From: a virus
Taxonomy: Duplodnaviria > Heunggongvirae > Uroviricota > Caudoviricetes
Strand: one strand, 5' to 3'
IMG/VR virus record: IMGVR_UViG_2667527666_000008
DNA: 33,255 nt
The notes below the pieces were generated by a model that was given only the letters and a program-made list of their open reading frames with translations, made no database searches and was not told the DNA's origin. The position numbers and the translations under genes are program-made. How positions within the stretch are numbered: position 1 is the stretch's first letter; each line of letters opens with the position of its first letter. Positions 1 through 14,889 of this stretch are shown piece after piece.

Positions 1-1131
1 TCAAATGACCAGTTTTTTCCACTCCTTACCGCGTACATCGTTGTAAATATCGGTCATTTTTTGATTCGAATGGCCTAGCAAAATTTTGGTATCAACCCCC
101 TGCTCTCTGAACAATCGCTCTGATAAAGATCTCTGCTCATGGAAAGAGGGTGGGGTGCCATTAGCACGCCAGTTGTAATCCACAGAATCCCGGGCTTTTT
201 TAAATGCAACGGTTAATGTTGCTGGCTTAACCATCCCGCCGCGCTTAGCTGTCCCTTTCGCGTGATGGTGGTGCAATAGCCACGGACTAAGAACGCAATC
301 GCGGCAGGATGACACTACATCATCCAGGGTGAGATTTAATTTATCGCAACGCAGAGCCAGAGGGATGGCAATCCGGGTTCCTGTTTTTTGCTGTTCGACA
401 TGAAGATAACCATCCCGGATATCCGAAAATTGCATTTTGCAAATATCTGAAAGGCGCTGGCCTGTCATCAGTGCCAGCAGCATACCGCGCTGTAAAAAGT
501 AACCATTCTTTTCCGCTGCGTTATAAATCATCATCCACTCATCAAAAGTCAGTCGCTGTCTTGATATCCGCACCTGCGGTTTTTTTGCCGATTCTGCAGG
601 GTTAAAGCCTGGCGGGACATCGCCCGTTTGCTGAGCTTCCCGGAAAACATCGATCAGTACTTTCCTGAAAATTTGTCCCATTCTGTTATGTCCTCTGGCC
701 TTGTACTCTTCCAGTACTGATACCACATCTTTTACGGTTATGGCATCTAACGGTCTGGTGCCAAAACGTTCATCAAATACCCTGAGAGGGGCCGCTTTCT
801 GTTTCAGCGTGTTGAGTTTGATCTCGCCGTTTTCATATCTTTCCTGTTGAATTTTTCTGTAATTATTCAGAAAAATGGTAACGGTTGATGAACCGCCGGT
901 ATCACTAATAATTTTCTCCTGCAGACTGAGCATTTGTTCCATTTGCTGCCGGGCAAGACGGCTGTTCGCTTCTGCTGCAATAGTTTCTGCCAGTTTCTGG
1001 TCAATACTGCCGAGACCGTGATTTTTGCCTGTTATGGGATGCCTGTAACGCCAGTAAACTTTGTTATTTCTTTTGTCAAAATACGGAGATAATCCCGGAA
1101 CATCGGTTTTATATTTTCGCGGGCGCGCCAT
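1..1131 (-). CDS. int: Phage integrase, tyrosine recombinase family
   Basis: 376-aa ORF with a typical lambda-family integrase C-terminal catalytic region (R...HxxR...Y context, 'LLGHSNQKMTDIYNDV'); stop codon at window positions 1-3; first gene of the leftward arm. Confidence 0.9.
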   Translation of the reverse strand: MARPRKYKTDVPGLSPYFDKRNNKVYWRYRHPITGKNHGLGSIDQKLAETIAAEANSRLARQQMEQMLSLQEKIISDTGGSSTVTIFLNNYRKIQQERYENGEIKLNTLKQKAAPLRVFDERFGTRPLDAITVKDVVSVLEEYKARGHNRMGQIFRKVLIDVFREAQQTGDVPPGFNPAESAKKPQVRISRQRLTFDEWMMIYNAAEKNGYFLQRGMLLALMTGQRLSDICKMQFSDIRDGYLHVEQQKTGTRIAIPLALRCDKLNLTLDDVVSSCRDCVLSPWLLHHHHAKGTAKRGGMVKPATLTVAFKKARDSVDYNWRANGTPPSFHEQRSLSERLFREQGVDTKILLGHSNQKMTDIYNDVRGKEWKKLVI

Positions 1132-4362: not shown

Positions 4363-4932
4363 TATCGCGTCCTCAACAATGAATTTTGTGATGCAGTGCC
4401 TGGTGCCTCCAGGTGACGTTAACCAGTTAACAATTAACGCCGGGTTAGTTGATGCTCGTTACGCCCGTAAAATACCGCCTTACTGCTTTAACTGTTCCGC
4501 GTGCGCATAGCCGCATTCACCGCATCACAAAATTCACTTTAAAAAGGGCGGCAGAGCAGTCACGGAGTAAAACTGATACCGCCAAATGTCACCAGAAAAT
4601 TGATAACAGAGGGCGTTGTAGCGGGGTTGTCACTTAAGCGTATGGTCAACCTGACAACCCGGTGCATTTTCTGGAGCAATGGAGGAAACCCCAGCCATAC
4701 TTACCGCCGCGCCATTTCGCGGAGTGCCACAACCGGAAGCGCACGGTCGAACTAAATTTAACGACACCGTACAGAGAGACCAATTTCGCCGTGCGCTTTC
4801 GCGTTATGCCCTGACTTTTCAGGGACATATCCTTTCAGTAAACTGTCAGTGCCGGATGCTCACCCGTGTCCGGCGCACGCACTCCACCTGACCAGTGGAG
4901 AACTCCTTAATTACCAACCCTCAGGAGGGTGA

Positions 4933-5212
4933 AATGGATAAAAAGCAAATTGAGGCCCTGCAATCTATTATTGAAGAACAAGATGAAGCTATCAGGATTC
5001 TTTCATATCGCACTGATATGATACTAAATATGCTTTCTGCATTAACGGCTGCGCTTGGTGGTACAAAAACAAACGTATACCGCGAAGTTGTTATTCAACA
5101 GATAGATAAATTTGAAAAAACCATACCAGGTATTAATGCTCATCTTGCAGAACAAGAGAAAGACCATGCTCTTATGGCAATTTCTTCAGTAGCTCTCCCG
5201 AAAGTTGAGTAG
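4933..5212 (+). CDS. Hypothetical protein (AT-rich cargo ORF)
   Basis: Strong AGGAGG Shine-Dalgarno 6 nt before the ATG at 4933; 93-aa product predicted helical; AT-rich relative to flanks. Confidence 0.45.
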
Positions 5213-5573
5213 TTTTAATTGTTGTTTTGAAATAATCACTGCTTTCACATTTGAGTGATTTCATGGCAATCCAAATGCGGGCCTCTGTGCCTGCATTTGG
5301 TTCCAGTTGCTGTAGACGTTTTGCGTCTTCCAAAAGTAAGGCGATAATGTGTTTCAGCTTCTCATCATTTGCTTGATTCTTGTTTTCAGGCGAATTCTGT
5401 CCGCCGAATAGGCGCTTCTCTTCATACAGACCTATAAAGGCACGACGCACGTTACCGGATATAGTATCGATGGTTTCCTTTTCTACAGTACTCAGGTCAA
5501 GAGTCGCCAGTTGAGAGCGAACCACATTCGCTGCCATTTCCTGGAATGGCATTGGTAAATCTTTAAATTCCAT
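5172..5573 (-). CDS. Hypothetical protein (133 aa)
   Basis: ORF convergent with, and overlapping the 3' end of, the 4933..5212 gene; AT-rich; no recognisable motif. Confidence 0.45.
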   Translation of the reverse strand: MEFKDLPMPFQEMAANVVRSQLATLDLSTVEKETIDTISGNVRRAFIGLYEEKRLFGGQNSPENKNQANDEKLKHIIALLLEDAKRLQQLEPNAGTEARIWIAMKSLKCESSDYFKTTIKTTQLSGELLKKLP

Positions 5574-5595
5574 TATTAGCCTCGTTGGTTAGCTA

Positions 5596-5814
5596 TTAAC
5601 GTGGGTATGTAACCATTCTGGCAATGCTTAATGCCGCTGCTTTTTCCAGCCTGGTGATATCCTGCTCCAGAGCGGACAGATTTTCAGCCTGCTTAGTCCT
5701 GGCTTCATTGGCCCATTTCAGATCCTGCACTGCATTAATTTTCTGGCGCATCCACTCATAAAGTTCATCATCGGTATAGTCTGGCGCGATGATGACGGGT
5801 TCTCGTTTCTGCAT
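5596..5814 (-). CDS. Hypothetical early protein (72 aa)
   Basis: Small ORF packed tightly in the leftward early operon. Confidence 0.4.
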   Translation of the reverse strand: MQKREPVIIAPDYTDDELYEWMRQKINAVQDLKWANEARTKQAENLSALEQDITRLEKAAALSIARMVTYPR

Positions 5815-9202: not shown

Positions 9203-9235
9203 ATCTGAGAAACGATTTTGTCGGAGGAAATTTTA

Positions 9236-9562
9236 ATGGAAACCGTATTTGACGCACTGAAAGCAATGGGAAAAGCCACATCGGTAGAACTGGCCGCGCG
9301 ACTTGATATCAGTCGTGAAGAGGTTCTCAACGAGCTGTGGGAACTCAAAAGAAAAGGCGTCGTTGATAAAACTGGTCACACCTGGTTTCTGGCTGGCGAA
9401 GGTGAATCCCGGGTAACCGAAGAGCGGCCAGTAAAATCTGAAGCACAGGATATGCTGACCGGGGAGGTCGAACAAAAAGTTACCGCAGACATGATGATTG
9501 AGTTTATCGGTCAGGATGGGGCTAAAACGTGTGAGGAACTGGCGGGTAAGTTCGGTGTCTGA
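9236..9562 (+). CDS. Small winged-helix-like protein, 3' end replaced by the IS junction
   Basis: GGAGGA ribosome-binding site before the ATG at 9236; the stop codon TGA is formed by the first bases of the IS left inverted repeat (TGAACC...). Confidence 0.5.
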   Translation: METVFDALKAMGKATSVELAARLDISREEVLNELWELKRKGVVDKTGHTWFLAGEGESRVTEERPVKSEAQDMLTGEVEQKVTADMMIEFIGQDGAKTCEELAGKFGV

Positions 9563-9601: not shown

Positions 9602-10492
9602 TCAGGCTGCCAGATCATCGTTTCCGATGGAAGCATAATAAGCTTTTTCTGCTTCTGCCGGAGGAGTATGGCCCAGCCTTTCCAGCAATCGTCGATTGTT
9701 ATACCAGTCCACCCACGTGAGTGTGGCCAGTTCCACTTCTGCACGGTTTTTCCAGCTCTTACGGTGTATTACCTCCGCTTTGTAAAGACCATTGATGCTC
9801 TCCGCCATCGCGTTGTCATACGAGTCGCCTGTACTTCCTGTTGATGCCAGTAATCCGGCTTCCTTAAGCCGCTGTGTGTAGGCCAGCGATACATACTGAG
9901 AACCTTTATCACTGTGATGGACCGTGCCGGACGGTCGACGGGCCCATAACGCCTGCTCCAGTGCATCCAGCACGAATGTCGTTTCCATGGACGATGAGAC
10001 CCGCCACCCCACGATGTATCCGGCAAACACATCAATGATGAACGCCACATAGACGAAGCCCCGCCATGTGCTGACGTAAGTAAAATCAGCCACCCACAGC
10101 TGGTCAGGTCGTTCTGCCACGAACTGACGGTTTACGCGGTCGCCTGCGGCAACGGCTTTCCGGCTGATGGTCGTACGGACCTTTTTACCCCGGAGAACAC
10201 CGGCAAGTCCCATAACCGCCATGAGACGTGCCACAGTGCATCTGGCCACTCTGATACCTTCCCGTAACAACTGACGCCAGACTTTACGCACACCGTATAC
10301 CTTGTGATTTTCATCGTATACGCGCTGTATCTCTTTCTTCAGCCAGTCATCGCGCTGCGCACGGGCACTGCGTTTATCCGGATGATGTCGCTGTTGCTGA
10401 CAGTGGTAATACGTTGACGGGGCAATATGCAGTTCGCTGCATAGCGGTCCGACCCCGTACTGCTCACGCAGCTTATCCAGCAGTGGCATCAT
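9602..10492 (-). CDS. IS3-family transposase OrfB (DDE integrase core)
   Basis: 296-aa ORF with DDE catalytic signatures (WVADFTYV..., HSDKGSQY..., [15 protein letters not shown]); overlaps OrfA by 4 bp. Confidence 0.9.
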
Positions 10493-10815
10493 TTTTTCCA
10501 GAGGCGGTCGAACTCCGCCTTCGCAAAATAAGCGGAAGCCTGGCGAAGGATATCGTTACTGCGGCGCAGTTCACGATTTTCACGTTCCAGCTCTTTCAGA
10601 CGCTGACGTTCAGCGGTGGTGAGCCCGCCATCACCGCCCCCGGTATCCCGCTCATGCTGGCGAACCCAGACACGCAGAGTCTCCGGCGTACAGCCAATCT
10701 TTGGAGCAATGGAACAAATTGTCGCCCATTGTGAGTCATATTCGCTCTGACTTTCCAGAACCATACGGACTGCCCGTTGACGGACTTCGGGGGAAAAACG
10801 AGTATTTTTAGTCAT
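10489..10815 (-). CDS. IS3-family transposase OrfA (HTH)
   Basis: 108-aa ORF with an HTH and leucine-zipper-like C-terminus ([18 protein letters not shown]). Confidence 0.9.
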
Positions 10816-10958
10816 CCTGTTTACCTCTTTCTCAGGAAGTTTAGTCTCCAGGATTCCCGGGGCGGTTCAGTACTCGCAAGGTTGCTTCCACGCTGGCGGT
10901 GGTAACCGCAACGGGGCGGCTGGCACGCGTTAATCAGAACGGTAAATTTCGTTACTGC

Positions 10959-11315
10959 ATGCCGGGCGATAATTTACCAGCAGAGCCGAAAGCCGCGCTG
11001 GTAACGGAAAGTGATGGTAAGGCCTTTCCTCAGCCAGCAGGTGCTGCGTTACCAGTCCGGGAAGCCGCAACACAGGAAGAAATTAAAACAGAAACTGTGG
11101 CGGACATTGTGCAGCCGTTGCCATCGTTTACCGAAACGCAAGCAGATGAGCTGATTTTTCCGTCCCTTCGCAGGGCAAACCTGGCGCTGCGCAGGGCGAA
11201 AAGTGATGTTCAGAAGTGGGAGCGAGTCTGCGCCGCGCTGCGGGAGCTGAACAAGCACCGGGATATTGTTCGACAGATTACTGATTCTTCCCGCCGTGTT
11301 GTATCGGAAAAGTGA
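10959..11315 (+). CDS. Hypothetical protein
   Basis: Open frame extends upstream to the IS junction (GTG at 10899); the ATG at 10959 is taken as the start; no recognisable domain. Confidence 0.3.
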
Positions 11316-11330
11316 TTGCCGGAGGCGCTT

Positions 11331-11756
11331 ATGGCAAAAGTATTTACACAAGAAGAGCGGGAAAAAATTAAAGGGCAGGTTGTTGAACTTGTACGTCTGA
11401 GCGGTCGCGAGACGTTGCGGCAACTGGAAGCCAAGACAGGTGCGACAAGATATCTGATGAGTGTTCTCGCCAGAGAGCTGGTTGCCAGTGGCGATGTATA
11501 CAACTCTGGTTACGGGTTATTCCCGTCTGAACAGGCGCGTAAGGACTGGCAAAATGCTCGCAAAAAACTCTCAAGGGCAAAGGTGAAGAAACCTGCAGTG
11601 GTTGATCCGGACCTTATCTGGTCGTTACCAGACGGCGAAATACGCCGCTACGACAGGCGCCTGAATATAATCTGTCGCGAGTGCCGGAAGAGCGAAGCTA
11701 TGCAGCGTGTACTGGCATTTTATCAAGGAAATGTTAGGTATTTTAGACGTTACTAG
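11331..11756 (+). CDS. Hypothetical protein (141 aa)
   Basis: GGAGG ribosome-binding site before the ATG at 11331; C-terminal Cys/Arg-rich segment (ICRECRKSEAMQRV). Confidence 0.45.
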   Translation: MAKVFTQEEREKIKGQVVELVRLSGRETLRQLEAKTGATRYLMSVLARELVASGDVYNSGYGLFPSEQARKDWQNARKKLSRAKVKKPAVVDPDLIWSLPDGEIRRYDRRLNIICRECRKSEAMQRVLAFYQGNVRYFRRY

Positions 11757-11909
11757 ATTAAAGAGCATTAGTTCAGATGTGAATTGACATTTTCATGGCG
11801 CAGGGTAGAGCCAGCGTGGTTGTCCGCTTTGCGTCAAAACCAGATATTACCAGATTTAGACATATATTCCCGATAGCCCTGCTCTGATGCTACACTCTGT
11901 GCTATTTTC

Positions 11910-12596
11910 ATGACCCCAATAAAAATATTTATGACTATTGCTGATTTCAAACGGCCTAAATTGGAGCTCCCAAACGGGGCAAACAAACTACTACTGCACT
12001 CTTGCTGTGCTCCATGTTCCGGTGAAGTGATGGAGGCGCTTCAGGCCTCGGGAATCGACTACACCATCTTTTTCTACAACCCGAACATTCATCCTCAGAA
12101 AGAGTATTTAATTCGTAAGGATGAAAATATTCGCTTTGCTGAACAACACGGCGTGCCGTTTATCGATGCTGATTACGACACCGACAACTGGTTTGAACGT
12201 GCCAAAGGAATGGAATGGGAGCCTGAGAGGGGGATCCGTTGTACCATGTGTTTTGACATGCGTTTTGAGCGGACAGCGTTGTACGCTGCTGAAAATGGTT
12301 TCAGTGTGATCAGCAGTTCACTGGGCATTTCACGCTGGAAAAATATGCAGCAGGTTAACGAGTGTGGGCGGCGAGCTGTTGCGCATTATCCGGGTATGGT
12401 GTACTGGGATTATAACTGGCGCAAGCAGGGCGGCTCGTCCCGTATGATTGAAATCAGCAAGCGCGAAAAATTCTATCAGCAGGAATATTGTGGCTGTGTG
12501 TATTCTCTGCGCGATACCAATCTACACCGCAAATCTCAGGGACGCCCTCTTATCAAAATTGGCCAACTCCACTACGGAAAAGAAGAGAAGGAGTGA
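11910..12596 (+). CDS. QueH-like protein (DUF208, epoxyqueuosine reductase family)
   Basis: Family-diagnostic motifs '[11 protein letters not shown]' near the N-terminus and '[11 protein letters not shown]' near the C-terminus, plus internal '[10 protein letters not shown]'; alternative start at 11931; preceded by a promoter-like AT-rich region. Confidence 0.65.
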
Positions 12597-12833
12597 TTTT
12601 ATGGATCACCTTTCTGATTGATTTCATATTGGCGAGGTGACGTGAGTTAAGTAGAATGGCTGCGGGTGCTTGAGGCTATCTGTCTCAGGCATGAACACTG
12701 AAAGGCAGATAGAGAAAAGCCCCAGTTAACATTTCGCGTCCTGCAAGACGCTTAACATTAATCTGAGGCCCAATCTATGTCTCACAAATGTAGGTTAGCC
12801 TCTTACGTGCCGAAAGGCAAGGGGAAGCAGGCT

Positions 12834-12989
12834 ATGAAGCAGCAAAAGGCGATGTTAATCGCCCTGATCGTCATCTGTTTAACCGTCATTGTGACGGCAC
12901 TGGTAACGAGGAAAGACCTCTGCGAGGTACGAATCCGAACCGGCCAGACGGAGGTCGCTGTCTTCACAGCTTACGAACCTGAGGAGTAA
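12834..12989 (+). CDS. hok: Hok/Gef-family type I toxin (51 aa)
   Basis: MKQQKAMLIALIVICLTVIVTALVTRKDLCEVRIRTGQTEVAVFTAYEPEE: single transmembrane helix plus the conserved Hok C-terminal region; in-frame upstream extension from 12777; structured leader and 3' fold-back hairpins. Confidence 0.85.
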   Translation: MKQQKAMLIALIVICLTVIVTALVTRKDLCEVRIRTGQTEVAVFTAYEPEE

Positions 12990-13058
12990 GAGACCCGGCG
13001 GGGGAGTAATCTCCCGCCACCTCTGATGTGCCAGGCATCCTCAACGCACCCGCACTTA

Positions 13059-13154: not shown

Positions 13155-13805
13155 ATGAATGAAAATCAGTTAGCTCCTTGTTGGGAATTTCAACCTTATC
13201 TTGCTGAAAACTATGTTCGCCACTTGTTGGCGGAGATCGCTAACGTACTTGAGCAGCTGTACTATCATAAGCACGCATTAGACAGCAACTGGTCTGAAGG
13301 TGTAAGGGCTTATGATTGGGTCAGAAATCATCTTATTCAAAATGAAGATGCAATTCCTGGCCTTGAGATGATTTCCAAGGGGTTGGACTATGTAGTTGCT
13401 TTAAATAAAGTTCCGCTACAATTTACCAAAGATTGCATTAATAACCCCAAAAAGAAACATCGTCTGCGTCGAAATAAAGTAGAGTATGAGCAGCTCTCAT
13501 TGTTTGGTGATGTTGAGGCTGAGCAAGATATTACATGGCGAGTCATAGCTGAGCCTTTTTTATCCGAAGAGGGCGATGGTGAATTAGAGTCCACACTGCC
13601 TCGTTGGGAGGTAGCTCTTGTTGGATTTAATACTTATGGTGCTCAGATTAGTATAGTTTCTCATCAATCTACAGCATCGATGCCGCTTATGCCTCTTGAT
13701 TATAACACACTCCCTGACGAAGCGGAGATTAATAAGGTGCCTCTTCGTCGGCGTACGAAGGATAAAGATTTGGATGTGAGCAGTGATGGAACATCAGGTG
13801 AATAA
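13155..13805 (+). CDS. Hypothetical protein (216 aa), first gene of a two-gene cassette
   Basis: AT-rich ORF with no recognisable motif; acidic C-terminal half; stop overlaps the start of the downstream HTH-peptidase gene by 23 bp (operon). Confidence 0.6.
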   Translation: MNENQLAPCWEFQPYLAENYVRHLLAEIANVLEQLYYHKHALDSNWSEGVRAYDWVRNHLIQNEDAIPGLEMISKGLDYVVALNKVPLQFTKDCINNPKKKHRLRRNKVEYEQLSLFGDVEAEQDITWRVIAEPFLSEEGDGELESTLPRWEVALVGFNTYGAQISIVSHQSTASMPLMPLDYNTLPDEAEINKVPLRRRTKDKDLDVSSDGTSGE

Positions 13806-14889
13806 CTTCACTGAGTATCGGGGTGATAAGCTCAAACTAGCGAGAATGGCTGTTGGGCTTTCTTGTGAAGAGTTAGCCGAAAAAATTGGCAAGACAAAGC
13901 AATTCGTTAGCAAACTGGAGAAGGGGTGCAGGCCATCGGAGCAATGTCTTGAGTTAATATCTTCAGCGCTTATGATTAAGTCCAGTTTTCTTTTTACTGA
14001 ACGAAAATACGCTCTGGAAAGTGATGTCTGCCATTTTCGGAGTAAGAAGTCCAGGACTCAAACGCTGACTAATAGTGTATTGGCCAGGGCTGAGATTCTT
14101 AATATTATAATTTCTGCTGTTGAAGGTGAAATCGAATTTCCTGACGTTAACATACCGGAGCACCCAGGGGCTGAATTACTTACTCCGAATGATATTGAGC
14201 GAGTGGCAGAAGATTGTCGCCGTGCCTGGAATTTAGGTCTTGGCCCTATATCATCAATGGTTAAATTGGCGGAGAGTTTAGGGGTAATCGTTGCGCATGT
14301 TACGGGAGTCGATGATCGTGTTGATGCTTTTACTGTTCACAATAACAGGCCTGTTATCATCAGGAACAATGTTAAAAAAAGCATATGTAGATTTCGCTCT
14401 GATTTAGGTCATGAATTAGGGCATTTAGTAATGCATGAGGGCATAACGACAGGTGATAAACTTACGGAATCACAAGCCGATCACTTTTCGAGCGCCTTAT
14501 TAGTTCCCAGGTTATCTTTCATTAAAGAATTTCCACGAATACGAGGTAAGCAATTCGACTGGAATGCTCTGGTTGAATTTAAACTTAGATGGAAAATCAG
14601 CCTTAAAATGTGTATTTATCGAGCCAGCGCATTAGGCTTATTGACCCAGGAACAGGCAAGAACTGGCTATATGCATCTTAATTCCAGAGGGTATACGAGA
14701 GTTGAACCTGGTGATGAACTTTTGCGCCCTGAAGAACCCGGCATGCTGGCCGAGGCGATTGAAATGCTGGATGATGCAACCTGGCTAAGAATTCTTATGA
14801 AAACTGGCTTGAGCCAAGATTTAATTCGTGAGTTGTTCTCCATCAACAGACCTATTACAAATCCAAGAAATATTTTCCAGATTGTTTGA
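13783..14889 (+). CDS. XRE-family HTH fused to ImmA/IrrE-type zinc metallopeptidase domain
   Basis: N-terminal HTH (LSCEELAEKIGKTKQFVSKLEKG) and central HExxH zinc-binding motif (GHELGHLVMHEG) in an ImmA/IrrE-like context; 368 aa; AT-rich. Confidence 0.75.
   Translation: MMEHQVNNFTEYRGDKLKLARMAVGLSCEELAEKIGKTKQFVSKLEKGCRPSEQCLELISSALMIKSSFLFTERKYALESDVCHFRSKKSRTQTLTNSVLARAEILNIIISAVEGEIEFPDVNIPEHPGAELLTPNDIERVAEDCRRAWNLGLGPISSMVKLAESLGVIVAHVTGVDDRVDAFTVHNNRPVIIRNNVKKSICRFRSDLGHELGHLVMHEGITTGDKLTESQADHFSSALLVPRLSFIKEFPRIRGKQFDWNALVEFKLRWKISLKMCIYRASALGLLTQEQARTGYMHLNSRGYTRVEPGDELLRPEEPGMLAEAIEMLDDATWLRILMKTGLSQDLIRELFSINRPITNPRNIFQIV

Follow-up and report, generated by a model that had tools for sequence, protein, structure and literature searches.

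A queH gene in lambdoid prophages of Escherichia coli and its possible role in cobalamin-independent queuosine maturation

Every Escherichia coli genome that carries the gene queH on a prophage already has a reductase for the last step of queuosine (Q) synthesis, which raises the question of what a second one, supplied by a phage, could be good for. The copy considered here lies in a stretch of viral DNA of 33,255 nucleotides (nt) (IMG/VR record IMGVR_UViG_2667527666_000008), called the window below, the whole of which is a lambdoid (Rac/Qin-like) prophage. An initial annotation, made from the sequence without database searches, had described a QueH-like (DUF208) gene carried as prophage cargo, had allowed that it could be divergent or inactive, and had associated it with the tRNA cluster of the phage and, as a possibility, with 7-deazaguanine pathways. 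In the following, we discuss whether the gene encodes a working epoxyqueuosine (oQ) reductase, where it came from, and whom it would serve. We will argue that it is likely a functional QueH that was captured from an enterobacterial chromosome and that would give lysogens a means of completing Q independently of cobalamin (vitamin B12). The enzyme family, the reaction and the exact protein are, on the other hand, already catalogued, and the identification as such adds nothing new.

The gene and its predicted product

The plus strand holds a single long open reading frame (ORF) at this place, with the TGA stop codon at 12594-12596. This agrees with the end coordinate of the initial annotation, and the two protein motifs that it had singled out are also both found, at 11988-12020 and 12474-12506. 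The start at 11757, on the other hand, does not hold, as this position is no start codon but the first base past the stop of the upstream DUF977 gene, and the segment down to 11930 is an intergenic leader that had been counted into the feature. The coding sequence (CDS) starts with the ATG at 11931, which is invariant in the alignment of all five prophage alleles, is the start used by RefSeq and by the Prokaryotic Genome Annotation Pipeline (PGAP), and is the point from which the chromosomal orthologues align. The first in-frame ATG is located at 11910 and would give a reading of 228 amino acids; it is ATT in the allele TUM14759, and the extension is probably not translated. The resulting protein of 221 amino acids is identical to RefSeq WP_000150294.1, named 'epoxyqueuosine reductase QueH', which an exact-sequence look-up finds on at least 1000 contigs, and PGAP calls the same CDS on identical DNA. 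The queH alleles of the lysogens 4/1-1 and ML35 are likewise 100% identical to it.

The assignment to the QueH family, which is also known as DUF208, PF02677 and COG1636, is borne out by several comparisons. The Pfam model PF02677 matches the protein with 221.5 bits (E 1.1e-65) over model positions 1-174 of 175, the curated cutoff being 23.5 bits. The profile search that the initial annotation had proposed as a check thus comes out in its favour, and the conserved cysteines are retained as well. The sequence of the Thermotoga maritima QueH in the PDB (7lc5) is matched with an E value of 7.8e-22 at 31% identity. A scan against NCBIfam gave no match for the protein, which is uninformative, since PGAP still names it QueH.

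A structural model was built with AlphaFold on the basis of 30 homologues (predicted local distance difference test score, pLDDT, 77.6; predicted template-modelling score, pTM, 0.79). When this model is compared with the PDB by Foldseek, the top five hits are the five QueH entries, namely 7lc7, 7lc5, 9d86 (C9S), 9dco (D13N) and 9deu (with queuosine), with target-normalised template-modelling (TM) scores of 0.86-0.88 and root-mean-square deviations of 2.0-2.6 Å. The next-best hits are the sulfurtransferases LarE and TtuA, with TM scores of at most 0.44. As judged from the predicted structure, the QueH fold, with its adenine-nucleotide alpha-hydrolase-like core, is present.

We now come to the cysteines. 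The six cysteines Cys9, Cys10, Cys87, Cys90, Cys169 and Cys171 of the T. maritima enzyme are said, by Li et al. in 2021, to ligate a [4Fe-4S] cluster and an adjacent metal. In the alignment, they correspond to Cys25, Cys26, Cys104, Cys107, Cys187 and Cys189 of the prophage protein (221-residue numbering), which are arranged in three motifs (Table 1). All six, together with the first motif, are invariant in the alignment of 30 homologues, and more than 100 invariant family positions of this alignment are kept in the prophage QueH. Asp13 of T. maritima, the residue mutated in 9dco, is replaced by Cys29. The motif CCAPC that results from this replacement is found in each of 120 close homologues, as well as in 104 of the 114 motif-bearing representatives of clusters at 50% identity, while CCAPD occurs in 3 of the latter. 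Within these sequences, Cys29 is hence the majority state of the family, and the crystallised T. maritima enzyme is the exception. The eighth cysteine, Cys145, is not conserved, being Ser in one allele. Judging by this retention of family sequence, predicted fold and ligand residues, the prophage QueH is very probably an active oQ reductase.

Chromosomal relatives, conservation and upstream element

The best relatives in the databases, which their sources name QueH, have 80-90% identity along the whole length of the protein. They belong to Citrobacter koseri (CKO_01240), Klebsiella oxytoca, Escherichia albertii, Enterobacter, Erwinia, Gibbsiella, Photorhabdus, Providencia, Proteus, Rahnella and others. 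Where the surroundings of such copies were inspected they are chromosomal: in Providencia queH lies beside tmcA, purC, bamC and dapA, in Erwinia between purL and glrK-glrR-glnB, in Photorhabdus beside benE, and on a contig of the Citrobacter/Klebsiella type near moaA and a LysR regulator. Compared with the nearest chromosomal copy, the synonymous divergence (dS) has reached saturation (dS >1.7), which means that the capture was not recent, or that the true donor has not been sampled.

Among 5426 complete E. coli genomes, the queH CDS is found in 995 (~18%) and absent from 82%, usually with one copy per carrier. This variable presence supports the description of the gene as cargo. In 985 of the 995 carriers, queH is covered to at least 80% and was counted as intact, and every copy among the matches listed bears the PGAP label 'epoxyqueuosine reductase QueH'. 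The gene for the cobalamin-dependent reductase, queG, is present in all 5426 genomes, and queH is therefore always a second, redundant reductase. The ratio of nonsynonymous to synonymous divergence (dN/dS) among the five prophage alleles is 0.04-0.09, at dS values of up to 0.45 (Nei-Gojobori), from which purifying selection on queH within the prophage lineage is clear at the level of these sequences.

Upstream of the gene, the likeness between the five prophage alleles is mostly limited to the last ~45 nt, which contain CTCTGATGCTACAC and, within it, TGcTACACT, a candidate extended -10 promoter element located ~35 nt 5' of the start codon. The element is part of a block of 14 nt that is almost the sole conserved upstream sequence, even in an allele with an unrelated upstream neighbour. 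Its -10 hexamer is invariant in the five alleles, and the one substitution (T to C, in DA33137) falls on the preceding base. An identical 9-mer is found at the same upstream distance in the chromosomal queH of Erwinia, and the same place is taken by TGcTAAAAT in the Citrobacter/Klebsiella-type copy and by TATACT or TATAAT in Providencia and Photorhabdus. The 9-mer shared with the Erwinia chromosome suggests that queH was captured with its own, native promoter. We infer from the same element that the expression of the gene need not depend on the early transcription of the phage. Such a candidate promoter would matter in the window, because an IS3 element (9602-10815), which is on the opposite strand, separates the early promoter from queH.

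In phage collections, the gene has gone largely unremarked. The corresponding PHROGs family, phrog_3217, bears the label 'unknown function', and the family profile, whose first residue is Met41 of the 228-residue ORF (Met34 in the 221-residue numbering), lacks the CCAPC motif, which suggests mis-called starts. A tblastn search of 50,697 phage records gave one isolated phage that clearly encodes queH, Escherichia phage HannyBb (PP925841); its intact gene (5095-5781) is 96.8% identical, occupies the same position and is annotated as 'hypothetical protein'. The record 'Acinetobacter phage MD-2021a' (CAKLQH020000001.1, 328 kb), with a QueH that is 79% identical, was rejected, as it is a fragment of a bacterial chromosome (soxR, ycaQ, cynX) and gives no evidence of phage carriage. 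The remaining matches, in fragments from faeces that carry no annotation or in oversized records that likewise lack one, were not counted as phage carriage either. A survey of phage 7-deazaguanine genes from 2019 reported no homologues of QueA, QueG or QueH in the viruses analysed (PMC6884629), and our literature searches found no paper discussing phage- or prophage-borne QueH.

Proposed role in lysogens and its alternatives

In the scenario that we favour, a lambdoid phage lineage would have taken queH from an enterobacterial chromosome, apparently with a short native promoter, and the gene would now be carried as cargo directly after the replication and Ren-like (DUF977) module. Its product is predicted to be a cobalamin-independent iron-sulfur enzyme that converts the oQ at position 34 of tRNA-Asp, -Asn, -His and -Tyr into Q. 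In lysogens, the host tRNAs would be its substrates, and it would work beside the host QueG. Since QueG needs B12, and E. coli has no de novo synthesis of cobamides, the prophage QueH would complete Q without B12, which would let the cell finish the synthesis when B12 is scarce.

This scenario can be set against what has been published on the two enzymes. The QueH family acts on tRNA-bound oQ by means of iron instead of cobalamin (PMC9508795; PMC13443448), while QueG is counted among the cobamide-dependent enzymes of E. coli (PMC11841063). That E. coli and Salmonella depend on a cobamide for the conversion of oQ into Q is stated by Frey 1988, in the form in which that work is cited in PMC4646009. 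Pairs of QueG and QueH with different cofactors occur in S. aureus (PMC13443448) and in some streptococci (PMC12632869), and can be read as a cofactor-dependent back-up. The difference between oQ and Q carries some physiological weight: insertions in queG have a phenotype under Ni/Co stress in E. coli (see below), and in Shewanella, Q goes up by way of queG when phages infect, the oQ-to-Q conversion being the regulated step there (bioRxiv 10.64898/2026.03.05.709803).

Not all parts of the proposal are equally firm. That B12-independent maturation of Q in lysogens is the benefit under selection has, in our estimate, a little less than an even chance. The broader proposal, namely that queH is a true lysogenic-conversion gene with its own captured promoter, which uncouples Q maturation from B12 in ~18% of E. 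coli strains, is more tentative still. A number of points weigh against these ideas. A generic two-hexamer scan for sigma-70 sites found no plus-strand promoter upstream of queH, the -35 region is poor, and there is no obvious Shine-Dalgarno sequence before the ATG at 11931. The gene is codirectional with the early-right operon, and a scan from the stop codon at 12596 to 13058 gave no terminator-like site, such that lytic transcription is also, or even exclusively, conceivable. At the protein level, Cys29 at the position of Asp13 is a departure from the only crystallised enzyme, albeit one that is the family norm. Finally, the phenotypic difference between oQ and Q in E. coli is weakly documented, and queG insertions resemble those in tgt and queA under Ni/Co stress (PMC9508795).

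If this role is correct, the last step of a tRNA modification with effects on codon decoding, metal stress and biofilm phenotypes can be bypassed without B12 by means of a common E. coli prophage, which would be a small and testable example of a phage altering the tRNA modification state of its host. Under the broader proposal, the carriers, including sequence type 131 (ST131), O104:H4, avian pathogenic E. coli (APEC) and some O157 strains, would have altered decoding of NAU/NAC codons, and altered biofilm, stress or phage-response traits linked to it, in niches that are poor in B12 or in cells deficient in btuB. It would also be, to our knowledge, the first enzyme of the tRNA-queuosine pathway shown to be supplied by a phage.

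Other explanations have to be weighed against the lysogenic role. The same enzyme could serve the phage itself, if it is transcribed with the early-right operon after induction and raises Q in host tRNAs during lytic growth in order to tune phage translation. The location of queH between the replication genes and the antiterminator gene Q, in the same orientation and without a terminator before the downstream genes, agrees with this, as does the Q increase upon infection in Shewanella. However, the promoter-like element is conserved and is also present upstream of the chromosomal orthologues, and the fraction of NAU codons is 0.58 in the prophage genes and likewise 0.58 in a sample of host genes, i.e. 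there is no bias. In the window, moreover, the IS3 element on the opposite strand is interposed between the early promoter and queH, and yet queH is identical to widespread intact alleles. A short lytic cycle would presumably also leave little time for remodelling a stable tRNA pool. We consider a lytic role unlikely on the whole. More improbable is that queH is a neutral passenger, i.e. a chromosomal gene captured by chance and hitch-hiking with successful prophages to the benefit of neither phage nor host. The presence of queG in every carrier, the absence of queH from 82% of the genomes and its location in a region of high gene turnover would all fit a passenger. Against it stand the dN/dS of 0.04-0.09 over dS values of up to 0.45, which is unexpected for an unselected gene, the 985 of 995 copies that are full-length and annotated as intact, and the way in which queH is kept beside the DUF977 gene across prophages that differ in their replication genes and downstream cargo.

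It could also be imagined that a QueH-like enzyme has been repurposed for a substrate other than oQ in tRNA, for example in phage 7-deazaguanine DNA modification, or for defence or anti-defence. This would be in line with the adjoining defence and addiction modules (hok/sok and RosmerTA in the window, a Kiwa KwaB-like gene in DA33137) and with the 'unknown function' of the family in PHROGs. However, QueH matches no defence model in PADLOC, while the genes at 13155-14889 match RmrT/RmrA, and the full-length identity of 80-90% to chromosomal orthologues comes without any phage-specific domain or extension. Moreover, none of DpdA/TGT, FolE, QueC, QueD and QueE, i.e. neither DpdA nor the genes for preQ0 synthesis, is annotated in two closely related prophages with the same gene order as the window, and Pfam scans of the queH neighbours gave families other than those of the 7-deazaguanine pathway. 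The pathways of phage DNA modification that PMC6884629 describes do not have oQ as an intermediate, and the QueH step, which comes after QueA and takes place on tRNA-bound oQ, lies outside them. The connection to phage 7-deazaguanine DNA pathways made by the initial annotation is thus not upheld, and repurposing appears highly improbable. Least probable of all is an inactive or decaying copy, for which no support was found, the only oddities being the Cys in place of the T. maritima Asp13 and the lack of an NCBIfam match. The ligand cysteines and the more than 100 invariant positions are kept, most of the family has the motif CCAPC, the Pfam model is matched in full length, and purifying selection is strong. 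Together with the identity to the orthologues and the number of intact copies, these results argue against the suspicion that the gene is divergent or inactive. The gene is best described as that of an ordinary enzyme, annotated correctly, whose location in a phage is slightly unusual.

Prophage setting and comparison with known systems

The location in a prophage, as the initial annotation had it, is evident from the integrase, excisionase, dicB/DicF, cI/cro-like, O/P-like, Q, holin/lysozyme, terminase and capsid genes. In related strains, the prophage is integrated beside ompW. To the left of queH, the integrase is accompanied by genes for excisionase, exonuclease, dicB, the DicF RNA, repressor/cro-like, DnaT-like and lambda-P-like proteins, DUF1627 and DUF977. 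To the right there are hokD/sok, the RosmerTA pair, DUF968, RusA, Q, a kinase/phosphatase pair, three tRNAs, an esterase, holin, lysozyme, terminase and capsid. The coordinates of the features discussed are collected in Table 1.

Table 1. Positions of queH, its sequence elements and other features of the window.
Feature	Position	Strand	Remarks
Integrase	1-1131	-	
DicF antisense small RNA (sRNA)	4546-4597	-	Rfam 77 bits; adjoins dicB/ydfD; typical of Qin/Rac-like prophages
DUF1627 gene, N-terminal part	~9218-9562		split by IS3 element
IS3-family element	9602-10815	-	orfA 10489-10815, orfB 9602-10492; ALIL frameshift pseudoknot 10418-10534
DUF1627 gene, C-terminal part	10899-11315		
DUF977 / Ren-like exclusion protein gene	11316-11756	+	Pfam DUF977, phrog_142; constant left partner of prophage queH
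Intergenic leader, DUF977 gene to queH	11757-11930	+	from ORF list, sequence and five-allele alignment
TGcTACACT	11888-11896	+	candidate extended -10 promoter element
In-frame extension from alternative ATG	11910-11930	+	probably not translated
queH CDS	11931-12596	+	221 amino acids and stop
H-S-C-C-A-P-C codons (Cys25, Cys26, Cys29)	11997-12017	+	first metal-binding motif; aligns to T. maritima H7-V-C9-C10-A-P-D13
C-T-M-C codons (Cys104, Cys107)	12240-12251	+	second Cys pair; aligns to T. maritima Cys87/Cys90
C-G-C codons (Cys187, Cys189)	12489-12497	+	third Cys pair; aligns to T. maritima Cys169/Cys171
hokD/sok type I toxin-antitoxin locus	12664-12989	+	Rfam sok 12664-12839 at 120 bits; Pfam HOK_GEF
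RosmerTA defence pair	13155-14889	+	overlapping genes; GC 0.42; between hokD and DUF968
Serine/threonine kinase and PP2C phosphatase pair	17730-19309	+	after Q; GC 0.37; names from PGAP of a related prophage
tRNA cluster, three genes	19796-20045		anticodons CAU, UCG, UCU (Ile2/Met-CAU, Arg, Arg)
First tRNA of the cluster	19796-19871	+	Met (CAT) by ARAGORN; tRNA-Ile by PGAP on identical gene
STnc100 sRNA family, copy 1	20121-20311	+	Rfam 136 bits
STnc100 sRNA family, copy 2	20589-20798	+	Rfam 165 bits

The gene heads a variable cargo and defence region of lambdoid prophages. In seven of seven contexts examined, among them that of the isolated phage HannyBb, queH is preceded by the DUF977 gene, either directly or with one short gene or remnant between them, while the upstream replication genes and the downstream cargo of this pair vary from one context to the next. 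On the 3' side, the window has hokD and RosmerTA, DA33137 the Kiwa KwaB-like gene, two strains of the Shiga-toxin-producing E. coli (STEC)/commensal kind hokD-rem, and TUM14759 a DUF1971 gene. The right edge of the queH insert coincides with the start of the hok homology, which in a flank-only search begins right past the queH stop, at ~12596-12600; on the left there is only the conserved leader of ~45 nt. A query in which the two flanks were joined found no place with at least 80% coverage and no genome with the flanks directly adjacent, i.e. no precise insertion scar. The queH CDS is found in 995 of the 5426 genomes, against 2841 in which its flanks are matched, and hokD loci without queH exist. 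The hok/sok flank 3' of queH is shared by thousands of chromosomes and plasmids of E. coli.

In the RosmerTA pair, PADLOC matches the protein of 216 residues to RmrT (E 5e-25) and the protein of 368 residues, which has helix-turn-helix and M78-peptidase parts, to RmrA (E 6e-105). The prophage of strain 4/1-1 is otherwise near-identical but lacks this pair. The DUF1627 gene that is split by the IS3 element in the window is intact in related prophages, and the close relative in strain MS 196-1 has an IS3 copy at a different place.

Concerning the tRNA cluster, with which the initial annotation had linked queH, Q is made only on tRNAs with GUN anticodons, namely those for Asp, Asn, His and Tyr (PMC10570037). 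Because of this restriction, the anticodons CAU, UCG and UCU are not queuosine substrates. The cluster is also ~7 kb away from queH, behind the Q antiterminator gene in the late-gene leader region, which is a different module. The proposed link was therefore rejected. The tRNA-Ile that PGAP assigns to the first gene is the Ile2 tRNA with a lysidine modification, which Stx-like phages likewise have in their ileZ-argN-argO clusters. The two STnc100 copies lie just 3' of the tRNA cluster, at the place that toxin genes occupy in Stx phages; stx genes are absent.

It remains to compare the prophage QueH with the systems to which it is related. The closest functional counterpart is QueG (YjeS), for which the same reaction on the same tRNAs is predicted, and both genes occur in every E. 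coli that carries queH. The two proteins are, however, unrelated in fold and cofactor, QueG using cobalamin and a [4Fe-4S] cluster while QueH is described as iron-dependent, and queG is a core gene (5426/5426 genomes), whereas queH is accessory (995/5426). With the T. maritima QueH, the prophage protein shares the full-length domain, the fold, the six cysteines, the size and the single-domain architecture; it differs by having ~19 extra residues at the N-terminus and 20 at the C-terminus. These extensions are common to the enterobacterial orthologues. Those chromosomal QueH proteins of Enterobacterales, in turn, have the same length, 80-90% identity and a -10-like element at the same upstream distance, but their genes are found amid core metabolic genes, while the prophage copy is located between the DUF977/Ren-like gene and hok/sok. 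The 7-deazaguanine DNA clusters of phages such as 9g and CAjan, which combine DpdA with FolE, QueD, QueE as well as QueC, resemble the prophage QueH in that they bring queuosine-related chemistry onto phage genomes. They do so with the early pathway, leading to preQ0, and a DNA transglycosylase, whereas the queH prophage carries only a late, tRNA-specific enzyme.

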